Shown here: positions 5,975 through 21,402 of the stretch, piece after piece
How positions within the stretch are numbered: position 1 is the first letter of the stretch
Layout: each line of letters opens with the position of its first letter
Virus record (IMG/VR): IMGVR_UViG_3300021964_000019
Strand: one strand, 5' to 3'
DNA length: 64,000 nt
DNA from: an uncultured virus (IMG/VR IMGVR_UViG_3300021964_000019)
Taxonomy: Duplodnaviria > Heunggongvirae > Uroviricota > Caudoviricetes
Notes under the pieces: generated by a model
Told to the model about the DNA's origin: nothing
The model's input: only the letters and a program-made list of their open reading frames with translations
Database searches by the model: none
Translations under genes and position numbers: made by a program

Positions 5975-7288
5975 TTAGTTTGCAATATAACTTGGACTGT
6001 TTTTATTGTTGTTGTTGTTTAGTTCTCCAACATCTGTAAAAGTATCTTCTGAAGAAAAAGGAAATCTAGTAACACTCTGATATAGAGGACTATAGGGATT
6101 TTGTATTACTGAAAAACCATAAACAGTTGAAGAAGTTGATGGGCCATTTACAACAAATGAAGGAGGTCCTGTAGGTGTGCTAATTGCTCCTGAAAGCACT
6201 GTAAAAGGAGTGTCTGAAGTAAAAGGCATTTTCGCTATGTTATAAACAGCTCCTGAAGGTCCTGAACCTCCTGTTACATAGCCTGCTTCATTAGAATTAT
6301 GTGATAAACCATTACGAGAGCTTGCAGTTCCTGTATCTGCAATGTTTGCACTCCATGCGTAGTTAGAAAAAGCCATTTTATCAACTTGAGTTGTATTTAC
6401 TGAAGTGCTTGAGCCTGGATAATATAGAAATGCTGGAGACCCATCAGGATTAACATTTGTGCCTCCTGCTAGATAGGCAAAGTCTTCTGATGCAAATCCA
6501 TGGCGTGTAGTATTTTCCTGGTATGGATAATTTGGCATGGATTGCACTGTATCATCTGCTGAAAAAGGAACTCGTTTACCTCCAAACTGTTCAAGGTGAT
6601 AGTAAGAACGAGTAGTTGGATTGACTCCTGGTCCTGAGCGTGGAGTTTTACCTCCGAATACAAACCCATCTGATGGTCCTGCTAACGACTGTCCGCCGCT
6701 AGTATTATAGTTTGTATGACGCTGAAAGTTAGTTGGCGCCCCACTACCAGGAAAGGATGTATAGAGAAAGTATGGAGCTGTTGATTTAACACTCCAAGTA
6801 TCAGACGCAAAAGCAATCGCTTCTACACTAGAAGGTCCTATACTGTAAACAGGCGTGGGATTGATAAAAGGAGAGTTTGCAGTTGAGGTAGGCCAGTTAT
6901 ACCCAAAGGCGGTATATCCATATCCTTCACGCGAACTCCATCCAAACTTTGCTGCTCCAGTTTTAGTTGGTGTATTAACTGTTGCAGGAGTCTCACTAGC
7001 ATAAGCATATTTTTCGGTCGTGACAGGATCTGTAAGCGAGAATTGAGGAGCTGCGTAAAAAGTGTATCCAAAAGTATCACCTTGATTATTACGAGCAGCA
7101 ACTGCTACAGGAGCTGGAGTTGGAAATACATATCCAAAACCTGTGGGAGTAAAAGAAAATGCACGACCGCCTTCTGTGGCGCCGTCGTGCACTCGAAGTT
7201 TATATGCTTCAAAATCCCAAACTAGTGTTCCATTTGACTCTATTGCAGTAGCGTTAGCAGAGCGTTTTACTGTAATTCGTTTGGACAC
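5975..7288 (-). CDS. Virion protein: Mtd_N-like adaptor plus divergent FPFSSD repeats
   Basis: GTG start after GGAGG; LRVHDGATEGG motif; PFxSD repeats. Confidence 0.7.
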   Translation of the reverse strand: MSKRITVKRSANATAIESNGTLVWDFEAYKLRVHDGATEGGRAFSFTPTGFGYVFPTPAPVAVAARNNQGDTFGYTFYAAPQFSLTDPVTTEKYAYASETPATVNTPTKTGAAKFGWSSREGYGYTAFGYNWPTSTANSPFINPTPVYSIGPSSVEAIAFASDTWSVKSTAPYFLYTSFPGSGAPTNFQRHTNYNTSGGQSLAGPSDGFVFGGKTPRSGPGVNPTTRSYYHLEQFGGKRVPFSADDTVQSMPNYPYQENTTRHGFASEDFAYLAGGTNVNPDGSPAFLYYPGSSTSVNTTQVDKMAFSNYAWSANIADTGTASSRNGLSHNSNEAGYVTGGSGPSGAVYNIAKMPFTSDTPFTVLSGAISTPTGPPSFVVNGPSTSSTVYGFSVIQNPYSPLYQSVTRFPFSSEDTFTDVGELNNNNNKNSPSYIAN

Positions 7289-7297: not shown

Positions 7298-10200
7298 TTA
7301 TGCCTGAGATTCAGACCATGAAATTTTACCACTGACTTCAAAAGGAGTTGAGTAGGTCACTGAAGCCGTAGACTGTGGCTGCACAGCAACTGTAAGAAGG
7401 TCAGGACCAGCTGGGAAGATTCCATCACCACCTAAGATTGAGTTACCAAGCTCTAACAACTCTGCTAAGTCAATTTCTACAGAACCGGCAGAAGCTTTTG
7501 TAGCTAGAATTGTTGTACCACCAGTTAATGTTTCTCCAGCTGAGTGCTCAATAATCTCTGAGAGTGATGGTTTGTCAGCATCTTCAAATGAGAGTTGAGA
7601 TGGAAGTGCATTAATAATCAAGAACACTTCTACACCCTGATTAGTTGTAATACCAGCCTGTTTTAGAGCTAGCTGCATTCGGTTAATAATTTCACGCTCT
7701 CCAACTGATCCTGTTAGTGAAGAGTCAACTGAAGGAGCTAGTCTCAAACTAACGAGCGGTAGAGGACGAGTTAGGTCAATTGCTTCTTGTTCTCCAACTG
7801 TGATTGTTGCACCACTTGAGATATCATTATAGATAGCTGCAGAAGGCTGTGTAGCTAATGCTGGATAGTTAGTATAAATCTTTGAGTTCGATCCATCAAC
7901 TTTAATCTGTGTAACATAGGTTCCTTCTGGTAAGTTTGCATTACTAGCATCTCGAATCTGGTCACCTACTGTGGTAGCAGCTGCGTTTACATTAGATACT
8001 GGAATAGAATACACATACACACGCTTACCATTTAGAGTAATCTGTTCAAAAGTAGAAACAGCACTTGAGGTAAACGATGACGAACCACCATTAGTATAAG
8101 CCATTGGACGAGATTGACGAGTAAATAGATAGGCCTTATCATCATCAAATGTTCCGTCCATGATTACAGAAGTACCAAAGTGGAAGAGAGTTGGAGCTGT
8201 TGTAGCTTGTGGACCGTTTTCAATTTCATAGCGTCCTGGAAGGTTACCTGATCTAAAGTATGATTCATTCAAACGGTTGTTGTGTCTAAACTCATGCACA
8301 TACTTCACATGACCTTTTTGGTCTTTGAACCCAAAACGAATCTTACCTGCACCATACCAAGAGAAGTCTGAGTAGGCCATCTGAATCTTTGTAGTATTAA
8401 GAACGAATCCACTTGGGCCTGTTCCGTCTGCTACATCTAAATTCCACTCGTCTTGTGGAATGCGAGTATCGACAGTTTTAGTTACTTTAACTTTTGCGGC
8501 TGTTACTCCACGATAAGCAGGCTGCACAACCATGCGAAGATCTGAGGATACTTCTACAATTTGATAGGTTTGTCCACGAATTACTACTTTATCATCTCTT
8601 GAAAGCTGAGTAGTAAATGAGGTTAGCACTCCTTCTACAACTTGAGAACCACGAGTTACATTGACAGATCCTGCAATCTGCAGTGTTGAGGAGCGTCTTA
8701 CACAGTAGAGTTTTTGACCATCAAACTCCCAGAAGAATCCATTCTGATCATCAAACATTCCTGTGCGAACATAAGAATCTAACCATGATTTTCTAACATA
8801 GGTTGGAAATCCTCCTGCTTTTGCTTGTGTTGGTTCTGCTTCCATTACATACTTGAATTGGAAATCATTAGCAGTTTCACTGACAGCAAAATCACCGTTA
8901 AAGTAGTTATTACCTGTAGTTACCACAGCTCCGTCAATTGTAATTTCATCACCTACTTTTAGATTGTGCGCTTCTTGAGTATTTACAGTAGCAACATTAC
9001 CACTGGTTTTAATTAAGTCTTGCATAATCTTTGCTGGATTAAAGTTAATCGCAACTGAGTTTTGAATACCTTTACCAGACTGATATCTAAAATACTTACG
9101 TGTTTGACGAGTAATTTTTGAGTTTGGCGAAGTTCCGGCTGTAATGTCAACACCACCGTCAAATGGAAGGTGTAGAGAATAACCGTCTGGACGTAGAATT
9201 AACTGTGTTGAATATTGATAGGTCACATTAGCTGCTAGTGCTGGAGTTGCATCATAGAGTGTCATATTAGAATCAGTTGTAATCTGATCTACTGTAAATG
9301 GCTGAATATAACCATCGGTTGGAATATAGATATCATCAAAACGCTTGAAATCAGTTAAGAATGAAGTACCAGTTCCAGTCACTGAAGTTCCGTTAGCTGC
9401 TACACTGATCAAACCAGTTCCAGTAACAAGTTTAACGATACCATCACTTCTTACTGTGTGAGTTCCTGTTGGAGCAGTGAGTGATAGTTTTGAATTGTTA
9501 AGCGCGTTTTGAGAAGAGTCAGCAAGAGCAAATGTGTTAGCGGTAATACTAATTGCAAATACATTACCACCTTCACCAGCTGTAAGTATTGAGTCATTTT
9601 GTCCTGGTGAGTAGGTAAGTTCTTCTCCAGTCACAAGGTTATGATCATCAATGAGAGTGATTACTCCAGTTCCAGTGTCTACATTTGAAGAAATAAAGTC
9701 ATAGTGTCTTCTTGGAATCTTAAAGTCTGACTCAAAGGTAAATGTTTTTGGACTTGGTGTTGTGGTGATTGGGAAAACTCCATCATAGGCGCCAACTACT
9801 GAATCAACAATAAACTCCTGTTTACCACTAGTTGAGGCTGTGTTAAGAGTCACAGTACCAGCATCTCCGCTCACAGTAAATCTGATTTCATAGTATTTGT
9901 TTCCGGCTAAGTAGCGACCAAAGTTAACCTGTGAAGTTGGGTTAATTGTTACATCAAATCCTACTTTTCCACCCTCAGTTTTTAGAATTTGAGAGATATT
10001 TTTAGTTCCAAAGAATCCTTCTGTTAAGTAGTTTGAAGTATCTTGACCGCTTGTACCAACAAAATATTCATCGCCATCACTAAAACTCATCACAACATAT
10101 TCGTTCTGATTACCAAAGTCACCTCTGAACTCTACTTTTGTAATCGAAGCAGTTGTAACAGCAGATCCAAGAGGTGTTTCAATGTCTACAAAGTATGTGA

Positions 10201-13069
10201 CAGTGTTATTATTAGCAGCACCAATTGCTCCAGTGACATTTGACGCAGATACTGTGTTAAGAGCGCGTAGAGTGATACGAGAATCAGTTGCACGTGAAAT
10301 TTCGTAGAACTGACCATTAGACAGACCGCCAATTTCAACACCTTTGTCACGAATTTCAACAGTTCCATTCATGAGTGCATGCACACCACACTGATAGTAG
10401 AGTGTGTGAGGAGTAGAAGCACCTACTGCAAATACTACATTTCCAGTTTCGGAACGTGAGTTTGATACTCCTGTGGTATACTCTCCTACATATCCTCCAG
10501 CCGAGTATCCAGCTCCGTTATCAGTAGTAAAGTAGAATGGATGTCCAGAAGCATTTAAATCAAATCTATATGTTTCGCCACGATAGAGAGTGAGTGACGG
10601 GTTTGAGATGTTATCACCAATATCATACTCTGTGAATAAAAATGCTGCAGATCCATCCGCAGTAATTTGATACACACGATTGCCTTCATCATTACCTTCT
10701 GCAAAATACTGAGCACGAGCTGTACCAGAGATTTTGTGGTTTAGAATGTAGATTGAGTTGTAGAGCGAGTTTTGAACACGATACTCAATTGAAAAGGCAC
10801 TTGGAAATGACTGAATGTCATCTGTATTCGGAGTGACTGCTAGAGTCACTTTAATTATGTCTGCGGTGACTACTGTAACAGTTGCCTCAATAGTGGCCTG
10901 ATTGATAGTAGTTGAGTTACCAGTAGAGTCAGAGAAAACGAAACGTTCTCCTGCTGCATACTCTGTTGACGGAATTACAAGAAATACTGTGGCTCCAGAA
11001 GCGATACCGTGATTCGGAGCATAGATGGTGTTTCTGGCTGATGTGAGTGTTCTTGAAAATATATAGAATATCTCTGAAGCAGTTCCTGGTGTTACTGTAG
11101 AAGAGTTATAACCTACATTAAAACTGCCTGCTTCGTCTGTGCTAGCAAGAGGATAGTTATACTGTGCAGCAATAGTTCCGTGTCTGCCTTTTTCTCGCTG
11201 ATTTGCTAGATACGAAAACTGTTCTGAGGAGTATGCGTAGGTGCTCGACGGATCGTCTCCCTGAAACGCGATAAGACGATCTGGAGCTACTAGTCCTGCT
11301 CCATAGGCTTCACCATAGAGGTCAGATCCTGAATAAGAAAAATCAGCCTCTGTGGTAGGAGCTACGGTATATGTATTTGTAAGATACAAACGATAGTAGA
11401 TATAACTCACTGACGAACGGATATAGATCGACCAACGCATATAGGTGTTAGAACCTGATGTGTAGACAGAGTTACCATTCAACTCTAAGTTAGGATAGAT
11501 ATACCCATTATATCGTTGATAGTAGTTTCTCGCAGGTGTGTTGTATTGAAAGTAGTGATACATAAACTCACGATAACCGCCTAAATCACCATAGGTGTAG
11601 ATATTGTTTACACGAACGGTTCCAATGGGATTTGAAAAGTAGGATGAGAGGTTAATTGTGCGCAGTGAGTATGAATTCTTTGGATTATTCATATAGAAGT
11701 ATCCTGCATAACGATTCTCTGTACCTCCAGCAGTTGAAGTATATATTGTACGACGTGTCTGTCCAGTAGACGAGTAGATGCGATATACAAGTCCAAGACG
11801 GCACAAGCCATAGGTGTTAAGAGGAGTGGTGAGATTCACCTTTGAGGTGCGCGCAATATCTGAGTAGAGCTCAAAAGTATCATCATCAATGCGTGTCACA
11901 TAGTAGACAGTTCCATCAGTCATGCCACCATCACTCTCGCCTTTGCGCGGAGTGTTAAAGAGTAGGCAGAAGTTGCTGTAGAGTCCGTGCGCAGTCCAAG
12001 TGATTTGATCTGTGGCAGCGTTGACTGTGCCAGATGAGAGATAGAGTGAGTGTGTTGATTCCCAGTCATAGGCTACCACTGGTCCTGCCTGATAGGTTCC
12101 ACGACCTGTATCAGTATTTGAAGTGATGTTTGAGGTGAGTGTAAAATAGGTGTCAGTATCAATTGTGGGACGATTGTCAGCCTCATTTGCGGTAGAGGCT
12201 GAGTTAGCGAGTTCTAGTGTTTTTGGTCCCACTGTGTTGCGCACATAGAGTTTTGTGTTAGCTTGAAAACCATGAGTCTCATCTGTGGTCACAGTGATGG
12301 TAGACGGAGTACCCGCATCTGTTTTTGCACCACCTGATGTGCTCACTGGAATAGGCGATCCTTCAAAGAATCGAGCCGCTGTGAGAGTGGTGTAGGATCC
12401 TGAAATGTCACCAGTGGTTGATGCTGCCACGTCCAGTTCAAAGAAGAATGTGAGAGTGTCTGAAACTCCTGAAATAATAAAGAAACCTTCTGCCTGATAG
12501 TCACTCACACCTTGCACAGAGATTGGATTACCAATGCTCAGTCCGTGCGGAGTGGTGGTGATCACCTTTACCTGTTTTGATCCTGCAGTAGCTGTAACTG
12601 ATGTCACACCCTCGACAGGTGTTCCGCCAGTTTCTGCATACACTGTGGGAATGTTATTGACTAGCTGTGAGGTTTCCCACTTAGTAGACTGTAGTCCATA
12701 CTCAAAGTCAGTATCAATGAGGTTGCCAGGATTTGACACACGTAGCTTGCCGACAGCGTCTAAGAGGTCGTCGGTGGGTGAAAATGTCTCACCCTCATGA
12801 TTTTCTACTAGAATCTGCAGTGCATCATTGGCAGTATGTCCTAATGAGCTGCAGTTGGTGGATAGTTGGATTTGCGTTTCTTCACTTAACTGATCATAGT
12901 AAACTTGCACATACCCTTTTGTGGAGTCAGCAAAGTTATAGATAATGTCATTGTTGTTGCCAACGTTCGTGATCAATAACAGACGTTCTGCTAGAATGTT
13001 ATCATCTAGAAAAACAGTGTTAGTTGAGGGATCGTAGCGATACTTATTTAAGTGAAGTTTTTTAGCCAT
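7298..13069 (-). CDS. Large (1923 aa) virion structural protein with an internal cupredoxin-like domain
   Basis: LRVSNPGNLIDTDFEYGLQ and RYQSGKG motifs typical of marine-phage structural proteins; HGL/HGF repeats; GHPFY...YYQCGVHALM. Confidence 0.7.
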   Translation of the reverse strand: MAKKLHLNKYRYDPSTNTVFLDDNILAERLLLITNVGNNNDIIYNFADSTKGYVQVYYDQLSEETQIQLSTNCSSLGHTANDALQILVENHEGETFSPTDDLLDAVGKLRVSNPGNLIDTDFEYGLQSTKWETSQLVNNIPTVYAETGGTPVEGVTSVTATAGSKQVKVITTTPHGLSIGNPISVQGVSDYQAEGFFIISGVSDTLTFFFELDVAASTTGDISGSYTTLTAARFFEGSPIPVSTSGGAKTDAGTPSTITVTTDETHGFQANTKLYVRNTVGPKTLELANSASTANEADNRPTIDTDTYFTLTSNITSNTDTGRGTYQAGPVVAYDWESTHSLYLSSGTVNAATDQITWTAHGLYSNFCLLFNTPRKGESDGGMTDGTVYYVTRIDDDTFELYSDIARTSKVNLTTPLNTYGLCRLGLVYRIYSSTGQTRRTIYTSTAGGTENRYAGYFYMNNPKNSYSLRTINLSSYFSNPIGTVRVNNIYTYGDLGGYREFMYHYFQYNTPARNYYQRYNGYIYPNLELNGNSVYTSGSNTYMRWSIYIRSSVSYIYYRLYLTNTYTVAPTTEADFSYSGSDLYGEAYGAGLVAPDRLIAFQGDDPSSTYAYSSEQFSYLANQREKGRHGTIAAQYNYPLASTDEAGSFNVGYNSSTVTPGTASEIFYIFSRTLTSARNTIYAPNHGIASGATVFLVIPSTEYAAGERFVFSDSTGNSTTINQATIEATVTVVTADIIKVTLAVTPNTDDIQSFPSAFSIEYRVQNSLYNSIYILNHKISGTARAQYFAEGNDEGNRVYQITADGSAAFLFTEYDIGDNISNPSLTLYRGETYRFDLNASGHPFYFTTDNGAGYSAGGYVGEYTTGVSNSRSETGNVVFAVGASTPHTLYYQCGVHALMNGTVEIRDKGVEIGGLSNGQFYEISRATDSRITLRALNTVSASNVTGAIGAANNNTVTYFVDIETPLGSAVTTASITKVEFRGDFGNQNEYVVMSFSDGDEYFVGTSGQDTSNYLTEGFFGTKNISQILKTEGGKVGFDVTINPTSQVNFGRYLAGNKYYEIRFTVSGDAGTVTLNTASTSGKQEFIVDSVVGAYDGVFPITTTPSPKTFTFESDFKIPRRHYDFISSNVDTGTGVITLIDDHNLVTGEELTYSPGQNDSILTAGEGGNVFAISITANTFALADSSQNALNNSKLSLTAPTGTHTVRSDGIVKLVTGTGLISVAANGTSVTGTGTSFLTDFKRFDDIYIPTDGYIQPFTVDQITTDSNMTLYDATPALAANVTYQYSTQLILRPDGYSLHLPFDGGVDITAGTSPNSKITRQTRKYFRYQSGKGIQNSVAINFNPAKIMQDLIKTSGNVATVNTQEAHNLKVGDEITIDGAVVTTGNNYFNGDFAVSETANDFQFKYVMEAEPTQAKAGGFPTYVRKSWLDSYVRTGMFDDQNGFFWEFDGQKLYCVRRSSTLQIAGSVNVTRGSQVVEGVLTSFTTQLSRDDKVVIRGQTYQIVEVSSDLRMVVQPAYRGVTAAKVKVTKTVDTRIPQDEWNLDVADGTGPSGFVLNTTKIQMAYSDFSWYGAGKIRFGFKDQKGHVKYVHEFRHNNRLNESYFRSGNLPGRYEIENGPQATTAPTLFHFGTSVIMDGTFDDDKAYLFTRQSRPMAYTNGGSSSFTSSAVSTFEQITLNGKRVYVYSIPVSNVNAAATTVGDQIRDASNANLPEGTYVTQIKVDGSNSKIYTNYPALATQPSAAIYNDISSGATITVGEQEAIDLTRPLPLVSLRLAPSVDSSLTGSVGEREIINRMQLALKQAGITTNQGVEVFLIINALPSQLSFEDADKPSLSEIIEHSAGETLTGGTTILATKASAGSVEIDLAELLELGNSILGGDGIFPAGPDLLTVAVQPQSTASVTYSTPFEVSGKISWSESQA

Positions 13070-13077
13070 CTCAGTTC

Positions 13078-13275
13078 CTATCCTAGTGCAATTGCAAGAG
13101 CGGTGGCAGTTGCTTGATCAACTCCGCCTGCTGAAGTCCATGTGTTAGATGCACGAACCTGTAGTCCTGTTCCGACCACATAGTTGACATCACCGTCTGA
13201 AGCGCCTGTAGGCAGTTCGCTAGTAGAATTGCGTATTTCGACGACTGCGTGTCCTCTTAGTTGTGAATAGTCCAT
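13078..13275 (-). CDS. Small structural/adaptor protein ending in ALAIALG
   Basis: GGAGG SD; the C-terminal AIALG motif is common in phage fibre modules. Confidence 0.65.
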   Translation of the reverse strand: MDYSQLRGHAVVEIRNSTSELPTGASDGDVNYVVGTGLQVRASNTWTSAGGVDQATATALAIALG

Positions 13276-13287
13276 CTACACCTCCTA

Positions 13288-13325
13288 TATACTTACTACT
13301 ATACTATATTTCTCACGACCAGTCC
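13288..13325 (-). promoter_or_regulatory. Promoter for the leftward structural operon
   Basis: Minus strand TGGACT-N17-TATAGT upstream of the 13275 start. Confidence 0.5.
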
Positions 13326-13419
13326 AATCTTATTTTATGATATTTCTACACACTCTCCACCGCGTTTGATCTCCGATCAAAACCACAGTGCCACTCTTAA
13401 AAATTGAAAATGCACTACT

Positions 13420-14101
13420 ACACGAAGTGTTTTTAACTGCATTTGCTGTAGCATTATATGCATTATCATTTTTAAACTATTGCACACAAATATAAAATCT
13501 GTTACTCTACTATTGTGTCTACAGAAAATGAGTAGATCGCATACTAGTTGAACGCTGGAGTGCGGAGCTTCACTGCTGTTTCCTCTATGTTCACACTATG
13601 TTTCATCGCGTTATTGTAACTACGCAAGGCAACGAAGTTGCATCTACTGTGTTACAACGCGTTTCACCCGAAGGGTGAACTAGATGAACTACTTGCAATG
13701 TAATTGAATCTTTACGCGAAGCGTCTATCTTATTTTATACTGATATATAATAAACTATATCTTCCCTCAAAGCCGACGAAGGAGGCTTGATTTATTCATC
13801 AGAATAATCGCTCAAATGAACCGCGAACGGAGTTCGCAACGGTGGCGCAGCGTGCAAGCGATCTTCAACTTTTTTTGGTTGTGAGGGTGCAAAAATTCCA
13901 TTTTATCCTGATTTTTCCTTATTTTTACGATATTCCAACTTTTTTTACTTTTTATTCACTAGGCGCACGAAGTGCGCCGTATGTACACTTGCCAACAGGT
14001 TATTTGACATGCTATGATATAAGGGTGAGGAGGGAGGGAGACCTTGCGCAATAGACTAGGCTAAATAAGACTTCGTCTTTTTGAGAGCGCACGTAGTGCG
14101 C
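13420..14101 (+). repeat. Non-coding array of C-GNA-G triloop hairpins
   Basis: Hairpins at 13420, 13562, 13629, 13663, 13714, 13770, 13823, 13962 and 14087 (+), and 14067 (-). Confidence 0.75.
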
Positions 14102-14124
14102 GAGCTGTAGGAGACGGTGCGCAT

Positions 14125-14152
14125 AAAAAAAGAGGGAGATTGCTCTCCCTCT
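14125..14152 (-). terminator. Rho-independent terminator after A2 paralog 1
   Basis: AGAGGGAGA/TCTCCCTCT stem, GCAA loop on the minus strand, T7 tail. Confidence 0.85.
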
Positions 14153-14178
14153 AGTCTCCCCCTTTTATGAAAGGCTTA

Positions 14179-14487
14179 CTACTGAGCTACTACACCGATC
14201 AAGCGAGTGATAGCATCTTTAGTAGCACCTTCGAAGCCCTGAACATCAAAGCCAGTTGCTTCAAGGTCGCGAAGAAGTTCCTTCTTAGTTGGACCTTCCT
14301 GCTTACGAGCCTGCGCCTTCGGCTTGGCTACATAAACGCCTTCGCGAACGAGTTTAGAACGAACTGAACGCACGCTCTTCTCGATAGACGCAGCGATATC
14401 GTCAATCTCTACGCCATTCTGATACTGCTCAACAATCTGAGCAGTCATTTCTGCAGTGTAGTTCACTGCCTTTTGAGTATCAGCCAT
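14179..14487 (-). CDS. A2: T5 A2-like pre-early DNA-binding protein (paralog 1)
   Basis: IAASIEKSVRSVRSKLVREGVY resembles the T5 A2 IAK...SVRSKL motif; AGGAG SD. Confidence 0.7.
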   Translation of the reverse strand: MADTQKAVNYTAEMTAQIVEQYQNGVEIDDIAASIEKSVRSVRSKLVREGVYVAKPKAQARKQEGPTKKELLRDLEATGFDVQGFEGATKDAITRLIGVVAQ

Positions 14488-14559
14488 ATTACATCTCCTT
14501 ATGACTATGCTTTGGTGAGATCAGTCGTGAGGCGATCTCTTCCCTCATCTTCTTTATAT

Positions 14560-14588
14560 ATAATAGATGAAATTTATCTTTTAAGCAA
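14560..14588 (-). promoter_or_regulatory. T5-type strong promoter; a second tandem promoter (TTGCAT-N17-TACTCT) lies near 14653-14681
   Basis: Minus strand TTGCTT-N17-TATTAT. Confidence 0.7.
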
Positions 14589-15083
14589 GTGAAAAGTGAC
14601 GGTAGTGTGCACTTAATGGTTAGAACATTCATCTGTCTTAATCGTTATATAGAGAGTAACACATTTGAGGGCATGATGCAAGCGCAAATTGATTGTCTAC
14701 TTGCATCCATGCTGCAACATGATGTAACAAGACTTGGTGCTATCTAGCGCACACATTCATTTTCTACTTGACAACGAGGGGGGACTTGTGCTACACTACT
14801 GGCGCGGATACGATTGACCATGCATTTTAATAGTAGATCTACTACTATGGGCCGGTGCCAAAATAAGACTTACAATAGATCGACCACTTACTAGCAGCCG
14901 CATTAACTTTCTACTTGACAATCGTCGAACTACTACTGGTGCCGAGAGGCACAGTTAAAGTAAAATATTAAGAACGCCTCGTAGTGTTCGCGGCAACTTT
15001 AAGTTTGCTGCTTAAGTGCTTGGATTGATTTAATTTTGTTGGTTGAAGAACACCAGCGACATCATTGTTTTCATTGACAAAAC

Positions 15084-15113
15084 GCCGCCCCGGGGCTGGG
15101 TAAGTTGTTGATT
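15084..15113. repeat. Cassette junction element 1 (GC core plus IHF-like box)
   Basis: GCCGCCCCGGGGCTGGG-TAAGTTGTTGATT, a perfect YAA-N4-TTGATW match. Confidence 0.75.
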
Positions 15114-15124
15114 ATGAAGGGTTT

Positions 15125-15331
15125 TTAGCCCCCTTCATAAATTGGTAATTGTAGAGCATTGCCAACATCGCTGACCTCATAGTTTTTGCCAATGTTAGCC
15201 TGCTGTTCTGCTGTTTCGTATGGACAGCCATTCACGCCACAAGGCCAAATTGCAGGCTTGCCATTATCCCAACAGTTGATTCCACAGATATCACAAGTGC
15301 CTGTTTTAGTTCCAAAATTTTGTTTAGCCAT
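15125..15331 (-). CDS. Small Cys-rich (Zn-binding?) protein, 68 aa
   Basis: Start MAKQNFG after GGAGG; CDIC...C...C...C. Confidence 0.6.
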   Translation of the reverse strand: MAKQNFGTKTGTCDICGINCWDNGKPAIWPCGVNGCPYETAEQQANIGKNYEVSDVGNALQLPIYEGG

Positions 15332-15803
15332 TGATTGAATTAGCCTCCATGTGATTGTTAGCAGTGACAGCATCACAAGCAATGATGCCGATTTTAGAAA
15401 CTTCTTCTCTGACTTCTGGATTATCATCCCACATAATCTTTTTGTGGTTTTTCCAACGAGTGAGGAAAAAGTCTTGAAGCAATTCACGCTTCATCTGACC
15501 ATCTGGACGAGTATCACCGACTGGTCTTGAAATAATGTTAGCGCATCCAATAGCGTGTTTAGCAAAGAAACGCATATCATCAGAGGTGAGAGTTCGAGCA
15601 GTGCAGAACATTACAGGAACGCCTTCACGCTTTAATTTTCTGAAAAGTTTAGCAAGAGGAAGCAGAGTATCTTTTTCGATATTGTTCCAAGTTGCTAGTC
15701 TCAACCATTCGCTAAGAATTAACCGACCATTCTCATCACGAGGTGTGCGATGTTCAGAGTTGATTAGAGTTCCGTCAAGGTCAAAGATAAATACAGTTTT
15801 CAA
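15324..15803 (-). CDS. HAD-superfamily phosphatase (PNKP-phosphatase/dmp-like), paralog 1
   Basis: FDLDGT motif I, CTAR motif II, K motif III, WDD motif IV. Confidence 0.85.
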   Translation of the reverse strand: MKTVFIFDLDGTLINSEHRTPRDENGRLILSEWLRLATWNNIEKDTLLPLAKLFRKLKREGVPVMFCTARTLTSDDMRFFAKHAIGCANIISRPVGDTRPDGQMKRELLQDFFLTRWKNHKKIMWDDNPEVREEVSKIGIIACDAVTANNHMEANSING

Positions 15804-15835
15804 AATAGTCTCCTTATTTGTTTTTCTTATATATA

Positions 15836-15948
15836 GTTATAAACGAATTTTCACCAAATTGCAAGCACAAAATGGTCTTTAGACGCATTTTTCCTAGTTA
15901 GTGTTGCAAAAATGTCACAGCGCCCCGGGGGCCCGTAAGTCATTGAAA
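15836..15948. repeat. Minus-strand promoter plus cassette junction element 2
   Basis: TTGCAA-N17-TATAAC (-); TGTTGCAAAAATGTCACA (15902-15919); GCGCCCCGGGGGCCCG; TAAGTCATTGAAA. Confidence 0.75.
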
Positions 15949-16221
15949 TCGTTGACTTATTCGGTCTTCATCTCGCCAGATTGCTTCATCTGATTGATCA
16001 TAGTGATCTTGATCAGGATATTCTTCTTCCGAGAAGTGTTCATCCCATTCGTCTGGCAAGATGCCAGTCATGATGAATTCCCTGTCATCATCCGACAGGT
16101 GAGGAAACGCATCTTGGATGAGGATGCCGCCAGCCTCCCATGCCTCTAGTGTTTCTCGTGAAACATCAATTTCGCGAGTGTTGGTTGCACCAGAGATGAT
16201 TGATTTTTTAGTGATAAGCAT
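15940..16221 (-). CDS. Conserved hypothetical phage protein (LIQDAFPHLSxDDREFIMTG family)
   Basis: Start MLITKKS after GGAGG; the motif is familiar from environmental phage proteins. Confidence 0.65.
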   Translation of the reverse strand: MLITKKSIISGATNTREIDVSRETLEAWEAGGILIQDAFPHLSDDDREFIMTGILPDEWDEHFSEEEYPDQDHYDQSDEAIWRDEDRISQRFQ

Positions 16222-16233
16222 AGAGCATCCTCC

Positions 16234-16277
16234 AAGAAAAAGAAAAAAGGAAAGAGAGAGAGGCTTGCGCCTCTCTC
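16234..16277 (-). terminator. Terminator after A2 paralog 2
   Basis: GAGAGAGGC/GCCTCTCTC stem, GCAA loop (-), pyrimidine-rich tail. Confidence 0.7.
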
Positions 16278-16283
16278 GCACGA

Positions 16284-16595
16284 TTATTGCTTGACGACAC
16301 CCATCAGAGCAACAATCGCTTCTTTAGTAGCACCCATCATGCCATTGATAGGAAAGTCAGAAGGCAGAGTATCTTCCAAATCGCGAAGCAATTCCTTCTT
16401 AGTAGGCTCATCGCTCTTGCGAGCCTGTGCCTTTGGCTGTGCGACATAAACGCCCTCACGAACCAATTTTGACCGAACAGACCGAACAGTTTTGCCAATG
16501 GCTTCTGCGATTTCATCAATCGCAACGCCATCTTGATAGAGGTCAACAGCCTTAGCAGTCATTTCAGGTGTGTAGTTTACAGTTTTTTCAGACAT
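16284..16595 (-). CDS. A2: T5 A2-like DNA-binding protein (paralog 2)
   Basis: MSEKTVNYTPE...VRSVRSKLVREGVY...PTKKELL. Confidence 0.7.
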   Translation of the reverse strand: MSEKTVNYTPEMTAKAVDLYQDGVAIDEIAEAIGKTVRSVRSKLVREGVYVAQPKAQARKSDEPTKKELLRDLEDTLPSDFPINGMMGATKEAIVALMGVVKQ

Positions 16596-16669
16596 ATTTT
16601 TCATCCTTTGTCTAGAGTTGAACTTCATTTTATAGATAGAATATATCACAAAAATATCCAAAAGTCAAG

Positions 16670-16816
16670 TCAGTAATTTGACAGATTGCATCTTTTTGAG
16701 TCAATCTTTTGACGCTTGCGGTTGTAATGCTTTTTGGACAGCACAACCTGTGGGCGAAATTCTTTCACCACACGCGCCACTGGATTTCTTCTGGTTATCT
16801 TTGTTTTCTTCATCAT
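16670..16816 (-). CDS. 48-aa basic ArfA-like peptide, apparently leaderless (not in ORF track)
   Basis: MMKKTKITRRNPVARVVKEFRPQVVLSKKHYNRKRQKIDSKRCNLSNY*; extended -10 (TGTGA-TATATT) ends 7 nt before the ATG. Confidence 0.55.
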   Translation of the reverse strand: MMKKTKITRRNPVARVVKEFRPQVVLSKKHYNRKRQKIDSKRCNLSNY

Positions 16817-16867
16817 GAGTTTAATATATCACAAAAATAGAATCTTTCTCGTCTGAATGCGACTAAT

Positions 16868-16957
16868 TGTGTTCAGTATACGACAAAATGCAAATAAAAT
16901 ATTCAATGATTTCAATAGGTTAGCGGCCGCGGCCCGGGGGCTGGTAAGTGCTTGAAA
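16868..16957. repeat. Cassette junction element 3
   Basis: TGT-N12-ACA (16868-16885); TTTCAATAGGTTA, 22-bp GC core (GCGGCCGCGGCCCGGGGGCTGG), TAAGTGCTTGAAA. Confidence 0.75.
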
Positions 16958-16964
16958 TTGCAGG

Positions 16965-17594
16965 TCAAATCACGCTGTCAATTTCATTCACCACAATTCT
17001 CAAAGCCTCATCACGACCCTCAAAGCGGTTATCCATGTTCACAATATTCCAGTCGCCAAGTTCAAACATTGCTTCTTTTTTGAGAGTAAGAGCATCAAAG
17101 TTTGAAACAGCCTTTGCATCATTAGGCGAGTGCTTCCAATAGCGTAGAGGGTCATGCTCTCTGCGTGTCAACAGTGTGCGTTGCTTGGCTTCATCTATTG
17201 ATAGCCAAAGTTTGACAAATAGAATTGGGCGTTCTTGTTCCCATTTCATCACCTTTGCCATAAAATTCCAGTATTGTTTTTGAGAACACCAGCCCATGAC
17301 AGGTTGAAGCAGTGCGCGAGAATAATGCGAGCGGTCATAGAAAACCATTTCACCTTTTTTAGGAAGCAATCTTTGCCATTCAGCAAGCCATGATTTCATC
17401 ATGCGTTTTGTTGGCATAAATGACGGCACAATGCGATGAGCATATGGCGGCAAGTATCTGGTCAATTCGCGGATTGTACCAGATTTGCCAGCACCATCAC
17501 GACCCTCTAATAATACAGCCACACGATAGCCTTTGTCATGGATAGTTTCAGCAAGTTCATTTAGGCGAATAAGATTGTCAAGATTAGTTTTCAT
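16965..17594 (-). CDS. ppk2: Polyphosphate kinase 2 family protein
   Basis: Walker A LEGRDGAGKSG, YDRSHYSR (DRSWY-like), KLWLSIDxxxQ, DPLRYWK-SPND lid. Confidence 0.9.
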   Translation of the reverse strand: MKTNLDNLIRLNELAETIHDKGYRVAVLLEGRDGAGKSGTIRELTRYLPPYAHRIVPSFMPTKRMMKSWLAEWQRLLPKKGEMVFYDRSHYSRALLQPVMGWCSQKQYWNFMAKVMKWEQERPILFVKLWLSIDEAKQRTLLTRREHDPLRYWKHSPNDAKAVSNFDALTLKKEAMFELGDWNIVNMDNRFEGRDEALRIVVNEIDSVI

Positions 17595-17645
17595 TGTGTT
17601 CATCCTTAATTGAAAGAGTTGGGGGAATTTCACCCCCATATTTTT

Positions 17646-17951
17646 TTATTGCTCGTAGTGAGCCAAGATAGCCAACAGACAGGCTTTAGTTGCACCCATC
17701 AGACCATCAGCAGGAAATGGAACGACTTTTTCAAGTTCAATCATAATTTCCTTTTTGGTTGGTTCATCAGACTTTTTAGCAGTCTGTTTTGGTTGTGTCA
17801 CATAGACACCTTCACGAACCAATTTTGAGCGAACAGAACGCACAGATTTTCCAATCGCATCTGCGATTTCAGAAATAGCGATTCCCTCTTGATAGAGGTC
17901 AACAGCCTTTTGAGTGAGTTCTGGTGAGTAGTTAACATTTTTTGCAGTCAT
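17646..17951 (-). CDS. A2: T5 A2-like DNA-binding protein (paralog 3)
   Basis: MTAKNVNYSPE...SVRSVRSKLVREGVY...PTKKEI. Confidence 0.7.
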   Translation of the reverse strand: MTAKNVNYSPELTQKAVDLYQEGIAISEIADAIGKSVRSVRSKLVREGVYVTQPKQTAKKSDEPTKKEIMIELEKVVPFPADGLMGATKACLLAILAHYEQ

Positions 17952-18038
17952 TTTTAACATCCTTATGACTAAGAGAGGTTTCCATTTTCAGGACTAGTCA
18001 CATGACCTTTCTTAACGCTCTCTGATTTAATATATATA

Positions 18039-18192
18039 GTTATAAACGATTTTTTCCAGAAAGTAAAGCAAAAAATGCAGTGTGATTGCATTTTTTTCGT
18101 AAAAAGCCAAAAGTGTTGTATTTATGCAACACATTTTATCAATTAAATCAATGACTTAGCCGCTCCCCCGGCCGCGCCGTAACTGGTTGATT
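18039..18192. repeat. Minus-strand promoter plus cassette junction element 4
   Basis: TTTACT-N17-TATAAC (-); AAAAAATGCA-N7-TGCATTTTTT; TGTTGTATTTATGCAACA; AATCAATGACTTA, 21-bp GC core, TAACTGGTTGATT (both perfect IHF consensus). Confidence 0.8.
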
Positions 18193-18303
18193 TCACTTAA
18201 AAATCAGCCAGTATAACGCGCCTCCCCAAATTATCGTATCAGTTGCGACCGAATAGCCAAGATAGAGACCGACAGCCAACCGCTTAAATGTATTCTGGCG
18301 CAT
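18193..18303 (-). CDS. Small membrane peptide
   Basis: MRQNTFKRLAVGLYLGYSVATDTIIWGGALYWLIFK; GAGG SD inside the upstream gene. Confidence 0.5.
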   Translation of the reverse strand: MRQNTFKRLAVGLYLGYSVATDTIIWGGALYWLIFK

Positions 18304-18523
18304 CGTCGTAGACCTCCCCAAAATCTTCCCATTCTTGCGCCCAATCTGGCTGACCATCGTCTTGCCATTGTTCGCGCTCGTCAATTTCATCAAGCGCACG
18401 ATTTAGCAGTTGCGCTTGACGCTCTGAAGGTTGAGCGTTTTCCAACAACACAACCGCCTCATGCAGTTCGTCATTGGTGAGATTTTCGATTTCGTCATGT
18501 CTCAGATTTTCAAGTTTAATCAT
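18284..18523 (-). CDS. Small acidic protein (QPDWAQEWEDFGE motif)
   Basis: GGAG SD; very acidic. Confidence 0.65.
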   Translation of the reverse strand: MIKLENLRHDEIENLTNDELHEAVVLLENAQPSERQAQLLNRALDEIDEREQWQDDGQPDWAQEWEDFGEVYDDAPEYI

Positions 18524-18576
18524 TTTTCAATTTCTCCGCTAGTTTCATCAGTCTTTTCTTATTCACAAAATGAAGG

Positions 18577-19104
18577 TCATTTCTTAGTCTGGCGATTGAC
18601 CTTTTTGACCTTACGATTAAAGGGCGTTGTTCTCCAGACTTTTTCGCCATATTTATATTCTGCATAGTTGTCACTCCCAAAATGTTGTTGACAGAAAGTT
18701 TTGATGTAGTTCAGAATTTTGCGAAAATTCCAGTTGAATTTTTTGCATATCTGAACAGCCTTCCCTTGATAGCCTCTGATTTGGTTGAGCGATACAGCAA
18801 AAATTTCAGTCCATCCAGATTTGATGCCGACAGCAATCGCATCTGTTTGAGCCTTGAAATGGTCAAGCCCTTTGCGTGCCATCATAATCTGTGACAGTTG
18901 TTCGACCAAATAAGTTTTGCGATCATCATCCATCACCAAACAGTTGTGAAAGCCAACAGTCCAACCATTGCGACCATAAGAGCGCAAAAATTCCTTGAAC
19001 CGACCTTCTGGAAAGTTGTCGCCATCCAAGCGGTGATTTCCAGTCCAGCCAGTCTTGAACAGTGTTGAATTGCCATCGTTGATTGATATAATGTAGTTAG
19101 CCAA
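18577..19104 (-). CDS. GIY-YIG/T5orf172-like endonuclease
   Basis: YII...FKTGWT...RFKE...E...GWTEIF pattern; TTG start after GAGGA; own promoter TTGAAT-N17-TATATA. Confidence 0.5.
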   Translation of the reverse strand: MANYIISINDGNSTLFKTGWTGNHRLDGDNFPEGRFKEFLRSYGRNGWTVGFHNCLVMDDDRKTYLVEQLSQIMMARKGLDHFKAQTDAIAVGIKSGWTEIFAVSLNQIRGYQGKAVQICKKFNWNFRKILNYIKTFCQQHFGSDNYAEYKYGEKVWRTTPFNRKVKKVNRQTKK

Positions 19105-19173
19105 TTTTTCATCCTCGTTTTGTTGACTCTTTATATATAGGTATTTATAGACTAATATTCAAGGTTTTGCAAG

Positions 19174-19299
19174 AAAAAAATGCGCCTCAAACGCATTTTT
19201 TTTCAAATTATCCAAAAGTGTGACATTTATGCAACAGATTTTCCCAATAAAAACAATGGGTTATGGGTCGCGCCCCCGGGGTCTTGCAAGTCATTGAAT
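19174..19299. repeat. Cassette junction element 5
   Basis: AAAAAAATGCG-N7-CGCATTTTTTT; TGTGACATTTATGCAACA; AAACAATGGGTTA, 23-bp core with CCCCCGGGG, CAAGTCATTGAAT. Confidence 0.75.
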
Positions 19300-19407
19300 T
19301 AAATAGTCTTTTCAGACTATTTATTCTTTCTGTTCTTGCGGCGATTTTTACGCTTCTGCGATCCAATCTTGCGGCGACCTTTGCCGACAGGATTTCTTCC
19401 AGTTTTG

Positions 19408-19650
19408 CTAGGCATCCCACACCTTCCTTTCTAATGTTAGTTCAAAAGTATCCATCCCCTCATCTTCAGGTTCAAAGATAATTACCTGTCCAACATCATC
19501 ACGAGTTGTCAGTTGATGTTCTATTATAGTGATGCTGAAATCACAATATTTAATTTCTGCATCTTTCTTAACAGCGTGAGCAGTAAGTTCATCTGCACAC
19601 AAGTCTAAAATTTCGCCATGCTGGTCTTTAACAATCCAAATCGTGTTCAT
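19408..19650 (-). CDS. Hypothetical acidic protein
   Basis: AGGAG SD; 80 aa. Confidence 0.65.
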   Translation of the reverse strand: MNTIWIVKDQHGEILDLCADELTAHAVKKDAEIKYCDFSITIIEHQLTTRDDVGQVIIFEPEDEGMDTFELTLERKVWDA

Positions 19651-19653
19651 GTT

Positions 19654-19815
19654 CTATATCTCCTTTTCATCAACATCAATTTCTATTTCAACAATTTCTG
19701 CTTCACCATATTCAATGCATTCGTTACAAGCCGTTGCATCATCAAAGGTTTCAGTTAGCAGTTCACATTGTTCACAACCTTCAACAGGTTTCGCAACATA
19801 AATCTTTTTCTTCAT
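19654..19815 (-). CDS. 53-aa CxxC...CxxC acidic protein (not in ORF track)
   Basis: MKKKIYVAKPVEGCEQCELLTETFDDATACNECIEYGEAEIVEIEIDVDEKEI*; AGGAG SD; promoter TTGACT-N18-TATAAC upstream. Confidence 0.7.
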   Translation of the reverse strand: MKKKIYVAKPVEGCEQCELLTETFDDATACNECIEYGEAEIVEIEIDVDEKEI

Positions 19816-19877
19816 GGTTATATTCTCCTAATTAGATAATATAGTTATAACATAAACCAAAGGCAAAAGTCAACAAC

Positions 19878-19997
19878 AAAATTCATTTAATCGCATTTTT
19901 ATGTCTAACTGTTGCAAATATATCACACCTGTCTTAGTTTCTCTAATGATTTCAAGGACTTACCGACTTGCCCCGGGCAGCCTGTAAGTGGTTGATT
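19878..19997. repeat. Cassette junction element 6
   Basis: CGCATTTTT; TGTTGCAAATATATCACA (19910-19927); TTTCAAGGACTTA, 22-bp core with CCCCGGG, TAAGTGGTTGATT. Confidence 0.8.
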
Positions 19998-20053
19998 ACA
20001 TACGCTTTTTACCTAAAAATAGTAGAGATACCACCGGCGCCGATTGCGGCTGG

Positions 20054-20257
20054 CTATGCGCCTATGGTCAAGCCATAGATCGCAATGCCAAGCAAGATTA
20101 TATTTGTAAGCAAAATCCATTTATCTTGTCGCTGGTATCCATGCACCATCCATGCAATAGCGGCACCGCAACCCATAGCCAAAGCCCATTGGGGCGCGCC
20201 ATTTGCCAGCGCGCTCATTTGCCAGATAACCAAAACAGTTCCAATCATTCCAAACAT
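20054..20257 (-). CDS. Small membrane protein (3 TM)
   Basis: Hydrophobic; TAATG coupling. Confidence 0.65.
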   Translation of the reverse strand: MFGMIGTVLVIWQMSALANGAPQWALAMGCGAAIAWMVHGYQRQDKWILLTNIILLGIAIYGLTIGA

Positions 20258-20439
20258 TAGCGAAACCCTCTAATAGTTAAATGCGAAAACATTAAAGCCG
20301 AGATAATGCCCATCAGCATCATAGCCACACCGATAATCAGATTATGCGTTTCTGGCAATTCAGCAATAGCCGCACCGAACACAATCAAAGACCATCCAGA
20401 CATAGCGCAAAGCGCAAAGAAAACTCGAATTAAAAACAT
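20257..20439 (-). CDS. Small membrane protein (2 TM)
   Basis: Hydrophobic; TAATG coupling. Confidence 0.65.
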   Translation of the reverse strand: MFLIRVFFALCAMSGWSLIVFGAAIAELPETHNLIIGVAMMLMGIISALMFSHLTIRGFR

Positions 20440-20906
20440 TATGCAAACCTTTCTGCAATTTTTTCTGGATTGATAACCGCAATTCCAATCTTGCGAAGTG
20501 ATGAACGAACCGAAGCGGCATCATCAAACATAACCTTTGAGGCTTTTTTGAATTGCTTTAGATTGAACAGTGAAGCAAGTTGTTTTGCTTTCAGTTGTCC
20601 ATCAGGCTCATTGTTACCATCTGGACGACTGATAATCTTATCAGGACAAATGCCCTCATTCATCAGAAATTCAAAATCAGCAAAGGTCATATTGCGAGCA
20701 GTGCAGATTAAAACATAATCGCCACGCTTTTGACGCTTGCGGATTTGTTGAGCCAATGGCAGAACCTTATCCTGAAAAATCTTTTCAGGCGTTGCGTTTT
20801 CTTTCCAAGCGGCAAGATTGAGCGTGCCATCTGGAAGTGTAGCCTGACGATGGCTAGAGTCGATGATCGTGCCATCCATGTCGAAGATTGAGATATTTTT
20901 AATCAT
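20439..20906 (-). CDS. HAD-superfamily phosphatase, paralog 2
   Basis: FDMDGT, CTAR, IISRP...PDGQLK, FDD; clearly homologous to 15324-15803. Confidence 0.85.
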   Translation of the reverse strand: MIKNISIFDMDGTIIDSSHRQATLPDGTLNLAAWKENATPEKIFQDKVLPLAQQIRKRQKRGDYVLICTARNMTFADFEFLMNEGICPDKIISRPDGNNEPDGQLKAKQLASLFNLKQFKKASKVMFDDAASVRSSLRKIGIAVINPEKIAERFA

Positions 20907-20929
20907 GTTTAATTCCTTTCTATATATTA

Positions 20930-21054
20930 TATATAATCATTCTTAGGGTAAAAATCAAGGGGTAAATGAAAAAAAGTTTCGTTTGTTTTCAATGGGTTAT
21001 CATTTTTATTTCTCAATGAATTCAATGGGTTAGCCTGCCCCCGAGGGCAAGGGC
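20930..21054. repeat. Minus-strand promoter plus cassette junction element 7
   Basis: TTGATT-N17-TATATA (-); tandem TTCAATGGGTTA boxes; core GCCTGCCCCCGAGGGCAAGGGC. Confidence 0.7.
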
Positions 21055-21402
21055 TTATGCCCTCGCCTTGCGGTTTTCTTTCATCCGCTTGCGTTTGATT
21101 GAGATGCGGAAAACCTCGCGGTTTTCATTCACCATGTTAAGATATTCGCCAAGCGTTTGCGTCATGCTTGGGGCTTGGCGGATTGGCAGTGTAACCTCAA
21201 CGGCTTGTTTCACATTGTTGCAAACCGAGCAAAGTGTTTGCAGATTAGCAAGTTCATTCTTGCCGCCTTTAGTCACGGGCTTTTTATGATCGCCTTGCAG
21301 TGAAGCGCCAGTAGTGTCGTGATGACCACAAGCGCGGCAAGTCCAGTTGTCGCGTGTAAAACAAGCCTCGCGAAGCGCCCAAGTAAGTTTAATCCGTTTC
21401 AT
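21055..21402 (-). CDS. HNH endonuclease
   Basis: RDNWTCRACG...DHKKP...GG-N...NLQTLCSVCN; GGAGG SD; promoter TTGATT-N17-TATATT. Confidence 0.9.
   Translation of the reverse strand: MKRIKLTWALREACFTRDNWTCRACGHHDTTGASLQGDHKKPVTKGGKNELANLQTLCSVCNNVKQAVEVTLPIRQAPSMTQTLGEYLNMVNENREVFRISIKRKRMKENRKARA

Follow-up and report, generated by a model that had tools for sequence, protein, structure and literature searches.

The stretch of DNA considered here (the window) comprises 64,000 nucleotides of an uncultured virus, IMG/VR record IMGVR_UViG_3300021964_000019, and the element in question is an array of small hairpins in a gene-free gap of 903 bp (13276-14178), bounded by two open reading frames (ORFs) of the - strand that encode proteins of 65 aa and 102 aa. 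Hairpins were defined as a perfect stem of at least 4 bp ending in a C-G closing pair around a three-nucleotide G-N-A loop (C-GNA-G). The window held ten of these, eight on the + strand and two on the - strand, and nine of the ten fell within 13365-14101 (Table 1). The nine hairpins of the gap compare with a mean of 0.096 and a maximum of 2 in 1000 dinucleotide-preserving shuffles of the gap, and the ten of the whole window with an expectation of 3.3 ± 2.0 (30 shuffles). Two hairpins in the core of the array carry tandem sheared G.A pairs. Every hairpin listed in a first-pass annotation of this sequence was recovered at its place; its assignment of strands was borne out for the + strand hairpins and for the - strand hairpin at 14067-14079, but it had missed the - strand hairpin at 13365-13381.

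The distribution of C-GNA-G hairpins over the whole genome was examined in a composite of 178,916 bp, made from the window and a near-identical IMG/VR record, G001 (173,519 bp, linear, CheckV 100% complete). G001 is 100% identical to the window up to 12203 and from 17601 on, and lacks 12204-17600 (5.4 kb, including the gap), an absence that a repeat, a variable region or a break of the assembly at paralogues could explain. The composite contains 23 such hairpins, 18 on the + strand of the window and five on the - strand, and because nine of these lie in the gap, while the next densest place holds four in 490 bp, in part inside genes, the array is unique in its genome; no similar density, as might have spoken against the element, was found elsewhere. 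Two other occurrences fall in the part of the composite supplied by G001, outside the window: two tandem C-GGA-G hairpins at 77299-77336, in a terminator-like position between + strand genes, and a C-GAA-G hairpin at 165537-165551, in a 5′ untranslated region (UTR) directly after the promoter-like sequence TTGCAT-N17-TGcTATGAT. Single GNA hairpins are therefore found in transcribed contexts elsewhere in this phage too.

Table 1. The hairpin array, associated signals and neighbouring genes, in window coordinates.
Feature	Position	Strand	Remarks
1923-aa virion/tail-fibre-like gene	7298-13069	-	follows the 65-aa ORF
65-aa ORF	13078-13275	-	strong Shine-Dalgarno sequence; left boundary of the gap
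TTTGATC-GGA-GATCAAA	13365-13381	-	weak promoter-like sites of the - strand (13298-13359) directly downstream
Hairpin 1, ACAC-GAA-GTGT	13420-13430	+	reads ATAT-GAA-ATAT in loci L003 and L004
GC-GGA-GC	near 13565	+	stem of just 2 bp; within a conserved block
Long-range helix, CGCGTT..TGTAAC with GTTACA.ACGCG	13607-13661	+	one compensatory change in relatives, TGGAAC/GTTCCA
Hairpin 3, GCAAC-GAA-GTTGC	13629-13641	+	enclosed by the long-range helix
Hairpin 4, TTCACCC-GAA-GGGTGAA	13663-13679	+	variable hairpin; stem replaced in relatives
Hairpin 5, ACGC-GAA-GCGT	13714-13724	+	includes the GCGAAGC mini-hairpin core
Hairpin 6, AAGCCGAC-GAA-GGAGGCTT	13770-13788	+	tandem G.A/A.G pair; stable on the + strand only
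Hairpin 7, GCGAAC-GGA-GTTCGC	13823-13837	+	invariant across the whole family
Run of seven T, then T-tracts ~10-11 nt apart	13870-13960	+	read from the sequence
Hairpin 8, GGCGCAC-GAA-GTGCGCC	13962-13978	+	-35 hexamer of P_B follows after ~10 nt
Promoter-like P_B, TTGCCA-N18-TGcTATGAT	13989-14018	+	10/12 matches and extended -10 TG
Candidate short transcript, purine/G-rich start GGGTGAGGAGGGAGGGA	14025-14084	+	sequence conserved in relatives; transcript predicted from sequence
AAGAC-GAA-GTCTT	14067-14079	-	C-GAA-G read on the - strand
Hairpin 9, GCGCAC-GTA-GTGCGC	14087-14101	+	GCGC in both arms
Intrinsic terminator of the pre-early-type block, AGAGGGAGA-GCAA-TCTCCCTCT then T run	14131-14152	-	GNRA tetraloop, unlike the array hairpins
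A2-like genes	17646-17960, 16284-16661, 14179-14487	-	hhalign against T5 A2; Atlas
dmp-like genes	20439-20906, 15324-15803	-	tblastn with T5 dmp, E 1e-11 and 4e-9
HNH gene	21055-21423	-	starts the block, as in T5
Pre-early-type gene block, like the first-step-transfer (FST) region of T5	14179-21423	-	PHROGs and Pfam scans, tblastn, hhalign, Atlas

Conservation, covariation and the level of pairing

The 102-aa protein encoded beside the gap resembles protein A2 of phage T5 (see below), and a search of IMG/VR with it recovered 41 loci. Hairpin 7 (GCGAAC-GGA-GTTCGC) lay downstream of the A2-like gene in 17/41 loci, always on the opposite strand, and these 17 carried further C-GNA-G hairpins at matching places with differing stems; among the other 24 are contigs that end too early and paralogous gene contexts. 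Across five close relatives the whole gap could be aligned, with a mean column identity of 80%. Hairpin 4 illustrates the exchange of stems, with the variants TTCACCC/GGGTGAA, GCACCC/GGGTGC, ATGAAC/GTTCAT and ATGCAC/GTGCAT, and its loop is flipped to TTC in L004. A search for a two-hairpin pattern returned 17 viral and 83 metagenome stretches, and the array is kept on about 100 phage contigs, marine wherever the contig name states a source. Besides elements of the window type there are elements of a short type, in which GCGACC-GTA-GGGAGC is the counterpart of hairpin 6 and also stands at the place of hairpin 8. The hairpins are syntenic, ordered and single-copy among relatives whose A2-like proteins are merely 53-70% identical, and dispersed copies that come and go, in the manner of repetitive extragenic palindromes (REP) or miniature inverted-repeat transposable elements (MITE), were not seen.

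Covariation was assessed in an alignment of 56 non-redundant short-type elements (A4), for a structure of seven helices defined by the analyst. Cells were paired in 93.3% of cases, compared with 81.8% in shuffles (0/500 shuffles reached the observed value), and both-sided changes occurred in 24/38 pairs; as a control, shifting the 3′ partner by 1-3 columns gave 25-44% paired. Two of the seven helices are uninformative alone because they were fixed by the search pattern, and hairpin 7, invariant in 56/56 rows, was nevertheless selected for by that same pattern. That structure is conserved while stems differ, as had been supposed from the window alone, is borne out by these compensatory double substitutions among relatives.

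DNA-level pairing fits the pattern of the array better than RNA pairing does. Only 28 of 1901 standard-pair cells in A4 (1.5%) were G-U, other mismatches amounting to 136 cells, and among 79 distinct GNA hairpins with at least six stem positions, 20 had a single mismatch, with G.T and A.C represented three times each; G.T was not favoured among the mismatches. The variable hairpin of the short type was C-GNA-G in 23 rows and the complement, C-TNC-G, in 28, one or the other being present in 51/56; such a flip is to be expected if the palindrome matters as DNA, because inversion of the loop is then harmless. Undoubted terminators of the same genome are of a different design, with GCAA tetraloops and purine-rich stems, and a leader terminator found in relatives had 37 G-U among 287 predicted pairs, a figure to be read with the bias of RNAfold towards G-U. 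As DNA, GCGNAGC mini-hairpins are exceptionally stable, the RNA versions being far less so, and they are bound poorly by single-strand-binding protein (SSB); they occur at primase sites and N4 promoters (PMC13037366, partial text). The marks of RNA-type pairing, namely tolerance of G-U and RNA-stable loops, were not found in the array, the loops of which are GNA/TNC triloops. The scarcity of G-U, the loop flip and the differing terminators support the first-pass view, in that the hairpins bear DNA-like rather than RNA-like marks. A purely symmetric cruciform is harder to reconcile with the tandem-G.A hairpins, whose stability is confined to the + strand, with the covarying long-range helices and with the promoters of the hairpin strand, all of which an RNA could also account for. 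Folding z-scores were similar for the two strands (-2.7 and -3.6), and RNAalifold energies did not distinguish one strand from the other.

The pre-early-type block and the parallel with phage T5

By its large terminase and gene content the phage is a distant relative of T5, a marine T5-like siphovirus of ~179 kb. Its TerL is ~41% identical to those of T5-like phages, which are its closest, and the window encodes a siphovirus-type structural module together with a tail-fibre-like protein of 3775 aa. In hhalign, the N-terminal half of T5 A2 matches the 102-aa protein and both of its paralogues (probability 82%, E 1e-5, with a shared SVRSKL motif), the nearest Atlas cluster of A2-like proteins has PF26822 (Phage_T5_A2) in 42% of its members, and T5 A2 itself matched two of the A2-like ORFs by tblastn (E 7e-4 and 3e-3). 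Tblastn with the T5 pre-early proteins found no A1 homologue, Pfam gave the A2-like proteins weak Sigma70_r4_2/HTH matches alone and no T5_A2 family match, a PDB profile search with them gave nothing useful, and the 102-aa protein had no tblastn match in phages. The A2-like and dmp-like matches in a T5-like phage place the gap at the distal edge of a pre-early-type block, and on both the kinship and the position the first-pass annotation had been right.

In the T5 record (NC_005859) the pre-early ORFs end at 9157, the annotated injection stop signal (iss) spans 9140-10149, the major nick is at 9748/9749 and the left terminal repeat ends at 10219; Repeat Region 3, which takes in iss and the inner end of the left repeat, covers 9194-10409. 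Untranslated, bent and crowded with palindromes and repeats, Repeat Region 3 surpasses the pre-early ORFs in conservation (bioRxiv 10.1101/866236, partial text). The gap resembles it in being a long untranslated region at the distal end of the pre-early operon of a T5-type phage, in being conserved above the neighbouring small ORFs, and in its palindromes, G/purine-rich tracts and probably bent DNA, intrinsic bending being suggested by the phased T-tracts at 13870-13960. In short-type relatives, the A2-like operon and the genes of the opposite strand converge on the element, much as T5.017 and T5.018 converge on Repeat Region 3.

The two regions also share C-GNA-G hairpins with stems that covary between relatives. 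T5 (112.5 kb) has six such hairpins with stems of at least 5 bp, five of them in the first 10.3 kb and three at 9899-10251, so that the same type of hairpin stands at the inner end of its terminal repeat, in keeping with the kinship proposed at first pass. Among six other T5-likes, the stem of hairpin A varies (CGAAC/GTTCG, GATGC/GCATC, GTGC/GCAC), hairpin B keeps its stem and has the GGA loop swapped for TTYA, and hairpin C (GGGCC-TTC-GGCCC), 20 bp past the end of the repeat, is invariant in 7/7 T5-likes. In phage My1, 301 bp separate a single hairpin of this type from the inner end of the repeat (12.9 kb, a length inferred from the two A2 copies). GCGC, the core of the T5 nick consensus Pu^GCGC (taken from the annotation of the T5 record), occurs seven times in 13845-14119 of the window, the joint genome maximum for a 300-bp span. 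The available text of Davison 2020 (bioRxiv 10.1101/866236, partial text) does not contain the words 'hairpin', 'cruciform', 'stem-loop' or 'secondary structure', and the T5 hairpins may already be catalogued as palindromes in its supplement. A literature search found no paper treating the GNA triloop together with bacteriophage hairpins.

A further observation concerns T5 itself. At 9883-9911 and 10222-10251, a C-GNA-G hairpin of the - strand follows the motif AAAAACTC.AG.CAATCA; the two hairpins, with stems unlike each other, stand on either side of the repeat end at 10219. A scan of 1-60,000 and 104,000-112,500 found this DRA-like motif at 9883 and 10222 only, and not at the left terminus.

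The best reading of the gap is that of a conserved untranslated control region closing a T5-type pre-early gene block. As part of this reading, we tentatively put at about 40% the probability that the gap is the functional counterpart of T5 Repeat Region 3, that is, a cis-acting DNA signal serving as an injection stop and/or a repeat boundary. The parallel is real but partial, and a number of results weigh against it. No sequence similarity to the T5 region was seen, neither the gap nor the short-type element having a blastn match in 50,697 phage records. Paired DnaA boxes are reported in Repeat Region 3 (bioRxiv 10.1101/866236, partial text), but pairs like those of iss are absent from the gap of the window, which has no perfect DnaA box at all (TTWTNCACA); the DRD and DRE direct repeats and the IRD′-spacer-IRC′ element of T5 were not found in the window either. 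There are 9-11 C-GNA-G hairpins here, compared with three in T5, and those three are found rightward of 9618, the calculated shear point (bioRxiv 10.1101/866236, partial text), closer to the repeat end than the presumed iss. The polarity of the operons differs, since the gap follows the A2/dmp operon, whereas the counterpart operon of T5 runs to the left terminus and not to iss. The 115.7 kb of Erwinia phage KEY hold a single such hairpin, which is not near the A2 gene, while the 12 of Vibrio phage VspSw_1 are scattered, and because of these two phages the association with hairpins is not general within Demerecviridae. A folded transcript could likewise account for the covarying nested long-range helices and for the sigma-70-type promoters conserved on the hairpin strand. 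The ends of the contigs of relatives were considered as marks of a physical terminus and rejected: among 80 loci, ends at most ~220 nt from the core made up 19/28 on the 5′ side and 15/23 on the 3′ side, an enrichment near the element, but because they are scattered on both sides no precise terminus can be derived from them.

If the gap is a cis-acting signal of this kind, the + strand, which carries the hairpins, would become unpaired through superhelical stress on entry, through nicks, or through transcription from the embedded promoters. Mini-hairpins would then snap out of the unpaired strand and, because SSB binds such hairpins poorly, would form a fixed, recognisable DNA structure. The folded structure might act in cis by pausing DNA transfer and/or by marking the repeat boundary, and the boundary or nick sites could be read by the adjoining A2-like DNA-binding proteins and by packaging and nicking enzymes. 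Hairpin extrusion, protein binding and a role in injection or in the making of terminal repeats are inferred. Work from the Rothman-Denes laboratory is said to describe the extrusion of such small hairpins from supercoiled DNA, and Chung and Hinkle reportedly proposed in 1990 a hairpin intermediate at the T7 concatemer junction in the duplication of the terminal repeat. The T7 palindrome, which lies next to the terminal-repeat boundary and is proposed to fold back, belongs to a different phage family and is a single element, and its link to the array is put forward as an idea.

It is rather doubtful that the one-strand array is, for T5-type phages at large, the physical device of two-step delivery and/or terminal-repeat formation. 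Were this so, the array would be a self-folding, SSB-resistant knot of DNA that halts translocation or marks the sites of cutting or nicking and is read by A2-like proteins, and T5, with three hairpins at its inner repeat end, would have a reduced version; this would explain why iss of T5 has resisted definition as a simple sequence. The stop after 8% of the T5 DNA has been injected, and the cutting and duplication of the terminal repeat, have been questions since the 1960s, and the responsible untranslated region of T5 has been known merely as a tangle of repeats. The marine relative presents a much cleaner version, consisting of nearly nothing other than ordered mini-hairpins with covarying stems beside three A2-like genes, and gives a concrete structural hypothesis that is testable in T5 itself. 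The array is moreover a large natural instance of GNA mini-hairpins, hitherto represented by N4 promoters and a few priming sites, and defines a conserved element on ~100 marine phage contigs.

Alternative explanations

Several of the features described above would suit a folded transcript. The + strand of the gap could be the source of at least one structured non-coding RNA, antisense to the genes on either side: a transcript of ~330-470 nt with the hairpins as its stem-loops, and a second, short G-rich RNA starting from P_B, although on balance this seems somewhat unlikely. Short-type relatives have a promoter (TTGACA-N17-TGnTAnTAT) 246-279 nt upstream of the ACGC hairpin, matched at 10/13 positions or better in 32/43 upstream segments, P_B is kept in both window-type and short-type elements, and a T run stands ~30 nt after the invariant hairpin in 55/56 rows of A4; the covariation in nested long-range helices, the one-strand stability of the tandem-G.A hairpins, and the C-GNA-G hairpins in a 5′ UTR and a terminator-like position elsewhere in the genome point the same way. 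Against a transcript stand the near absence of G-U pairs, the hairpin that flips from GNA to TNC, and loops that are DNA-stable triloops rather than GNRA or UUCG loops as in the terminators of the genome itself. Moreover, a hairpin with a T8-10 terminator intervenes between promoter and array in the short-type relatives, and in the window type no convincing promoter was found upstream of hairpins 1-7. The T run past hairpin 7 was rejected as a strong terminator, the stems before it being weak and heterogeneous (median -7 kcal/mol), a search of 12500-15000 against Rfam 15 with E up to 1 gave just a chance match to snoU13, and the z-scores, alike on both strands, single out neither. A replication origin or single-strand initiation site, at which the mini-hairpins would admit the DnaG-like primase and DnaB-like helicase once the duplex had been opened by transcription from the embedded promoters, possibly with an R-loop at the G-rich transcript start, must be considered decidedly unlikely. 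The phage encodes both enzymes, T-tracts and promoters are present in the region together with a transcript start marked by a G cluster, and natural roles of GCGNAGC include priming at the G4, St-1 and alpha3 origins and at RSF1010 ssiA, sites which resemble the array in their type of mini-hairpin and poor SSB binding and which act on single-stranded DNA (PMC13037366, partial text), and this phage has a primase of its own; those sites, however, have one to three hairpins in ~40-140 nt, and the array is much larger. Short-type elements show repeated CAGC/ACACAGC motifs and a mild excess of perfect DnaA boxes (0.26 per element compared with 0.017 in shuffles), and boxes with at most one mismatch number 5.5 per kb in the gap and 2.8 per kb genome-wide. 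The gap of the window nevertheless has no iterons, no large families of inverted or direct repeats and, as noted, no perfect DnaA box; GC skew tracks gene direction and gives no signal of an origin or terminus there, so that neither analysis indicates origin function. The replication genes lie ~85 kb away, and the origins of T5 map near the centre of its genome and not in the pre-early region (bioRxiv 10.1101/866236, partial text).

Purely local roles in transcription, in which the hairpins would serve as terminators, as insulators or as elements upstream of promoters, keeping the pre-early unit apart from the late tail-fibre unit and establishing the divergent promoters, are improbable as a full account. 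The gap does have a terminator on one side and the next operon on the other, a promoter-like start follows ~40-63 nt downstream of hairpin 8 and likewise of the - strand hairpin at 13365-13381, and in short-type relatives a GNA hairpin recurs at the corresponding place in front of P_B; but most hairpins of the array have neither a T tail nor an adjacent promoter, nine are far in excess of need, and the terminators of the genome differ in design. It is still less probable that the hairpins are selfish or mutationally maintained palindromes of REP/MITE type with no function of their own. Loop flips with perfect stems could be the product of template-switch palindrome repair, and the same 15-mer occurs at four loci of one giant-virus contig, yet the hairpins are syntenic, ordered, single-copy and not dispersed in the genome, and are kept among relatives whose A2-like proteins have diverged to the identities given above. 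Least credible of all is a role as N4-type promoters, recognised by a virion RNA polymerase on an extruded template strand, which had been evoked by stems of 5-7 bp with three-nucleotide GGA/GAA loops on the template strand of leftward genes. N4 promoters have a short-stem hairpin with a three-nucleotide loop of this form (PMC13037366, partial text), and the likeness extends to the C-G closing pair and the restriction to one strand. The role fails because no RNA polymerase was found, either among 42 window ORFs (PHROGs) or among 112 further ORFs (Pfam); PF00940 was absent from two related records, and the 3775-aa ORF matches tail-fibre families. Unlike those of N4 promoters, the flanks of the hairpins are not conserved here, and the downstream genes are late structural rather than early ones.

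Further signals and genes

Behind P_B, the candidate short transcript starts with a cluster of G residues, GGGTGAGGAGGGAGGGA in the window and GGGTGGGGAGGGG in the short-type locus L014 (~5690-5740, - strand of the locus), which is reminiscent of stacked Shine-Dalgarno sequences or of a start prone to R-loops; conservation does not extend to the tiny ORFs behind it. At its 3′ end stand AAGAC-TTC-GTCTT and a run of five T. L014 also provides an example of the strong upstream promoter of the short type (TTGACA-N17-TGcTAgTAT, ~6270-6330, - strand of the locus). The leader that follows this promoter in short-type elements runs for ~45-55 nt and ends in a hairpin of 5-7 bp (conserved 3′ half CACACAGCGTA) with a run of T8-10; lying just before the array and absent from the window type, it is possibly a small RNA or an attenuator. 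A tRNA scan found no tRNA in the gap.

Four loci outside the phage family, L053, L070, L081 and L108, come from one giant-virus metagenome-assembled genome and all carry the 15-base hairpin GCGAACGGAGTTCGC together with other GNA hairpins; they are unrelated to the phage element.

Two tail-fibre-like proteins encoded at 2350-5966 (- strand) have weak Mtd_N matches (E ~1e-3, below the Pfam cut-off), and because no reverse transcriptase was present among the scanned ORFs, a diversity-generating retroelement is not indicated. In the pre-early-type block, the genes at 20439-20906 and 15324-15803 are labelled polynucleotide kinase by PHROGs and may be duplicated dmp-like pre-early genes, and a gene for polyphosphate kinase 2 (PPK2; E 5e-41) lies at 16965-17639 (- strand), between two of the A2-like genes. 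The rest of the genome encodes RNR, ThyX, PhoH, Hsp20 and many 2OG-Fe(II) oxygenases, as well as Pol A, a DnaG-like primase, a DnaB-like helicase, Mre11/SbcC-like proteins and FEN, replication genes of the same kind as those of T5.

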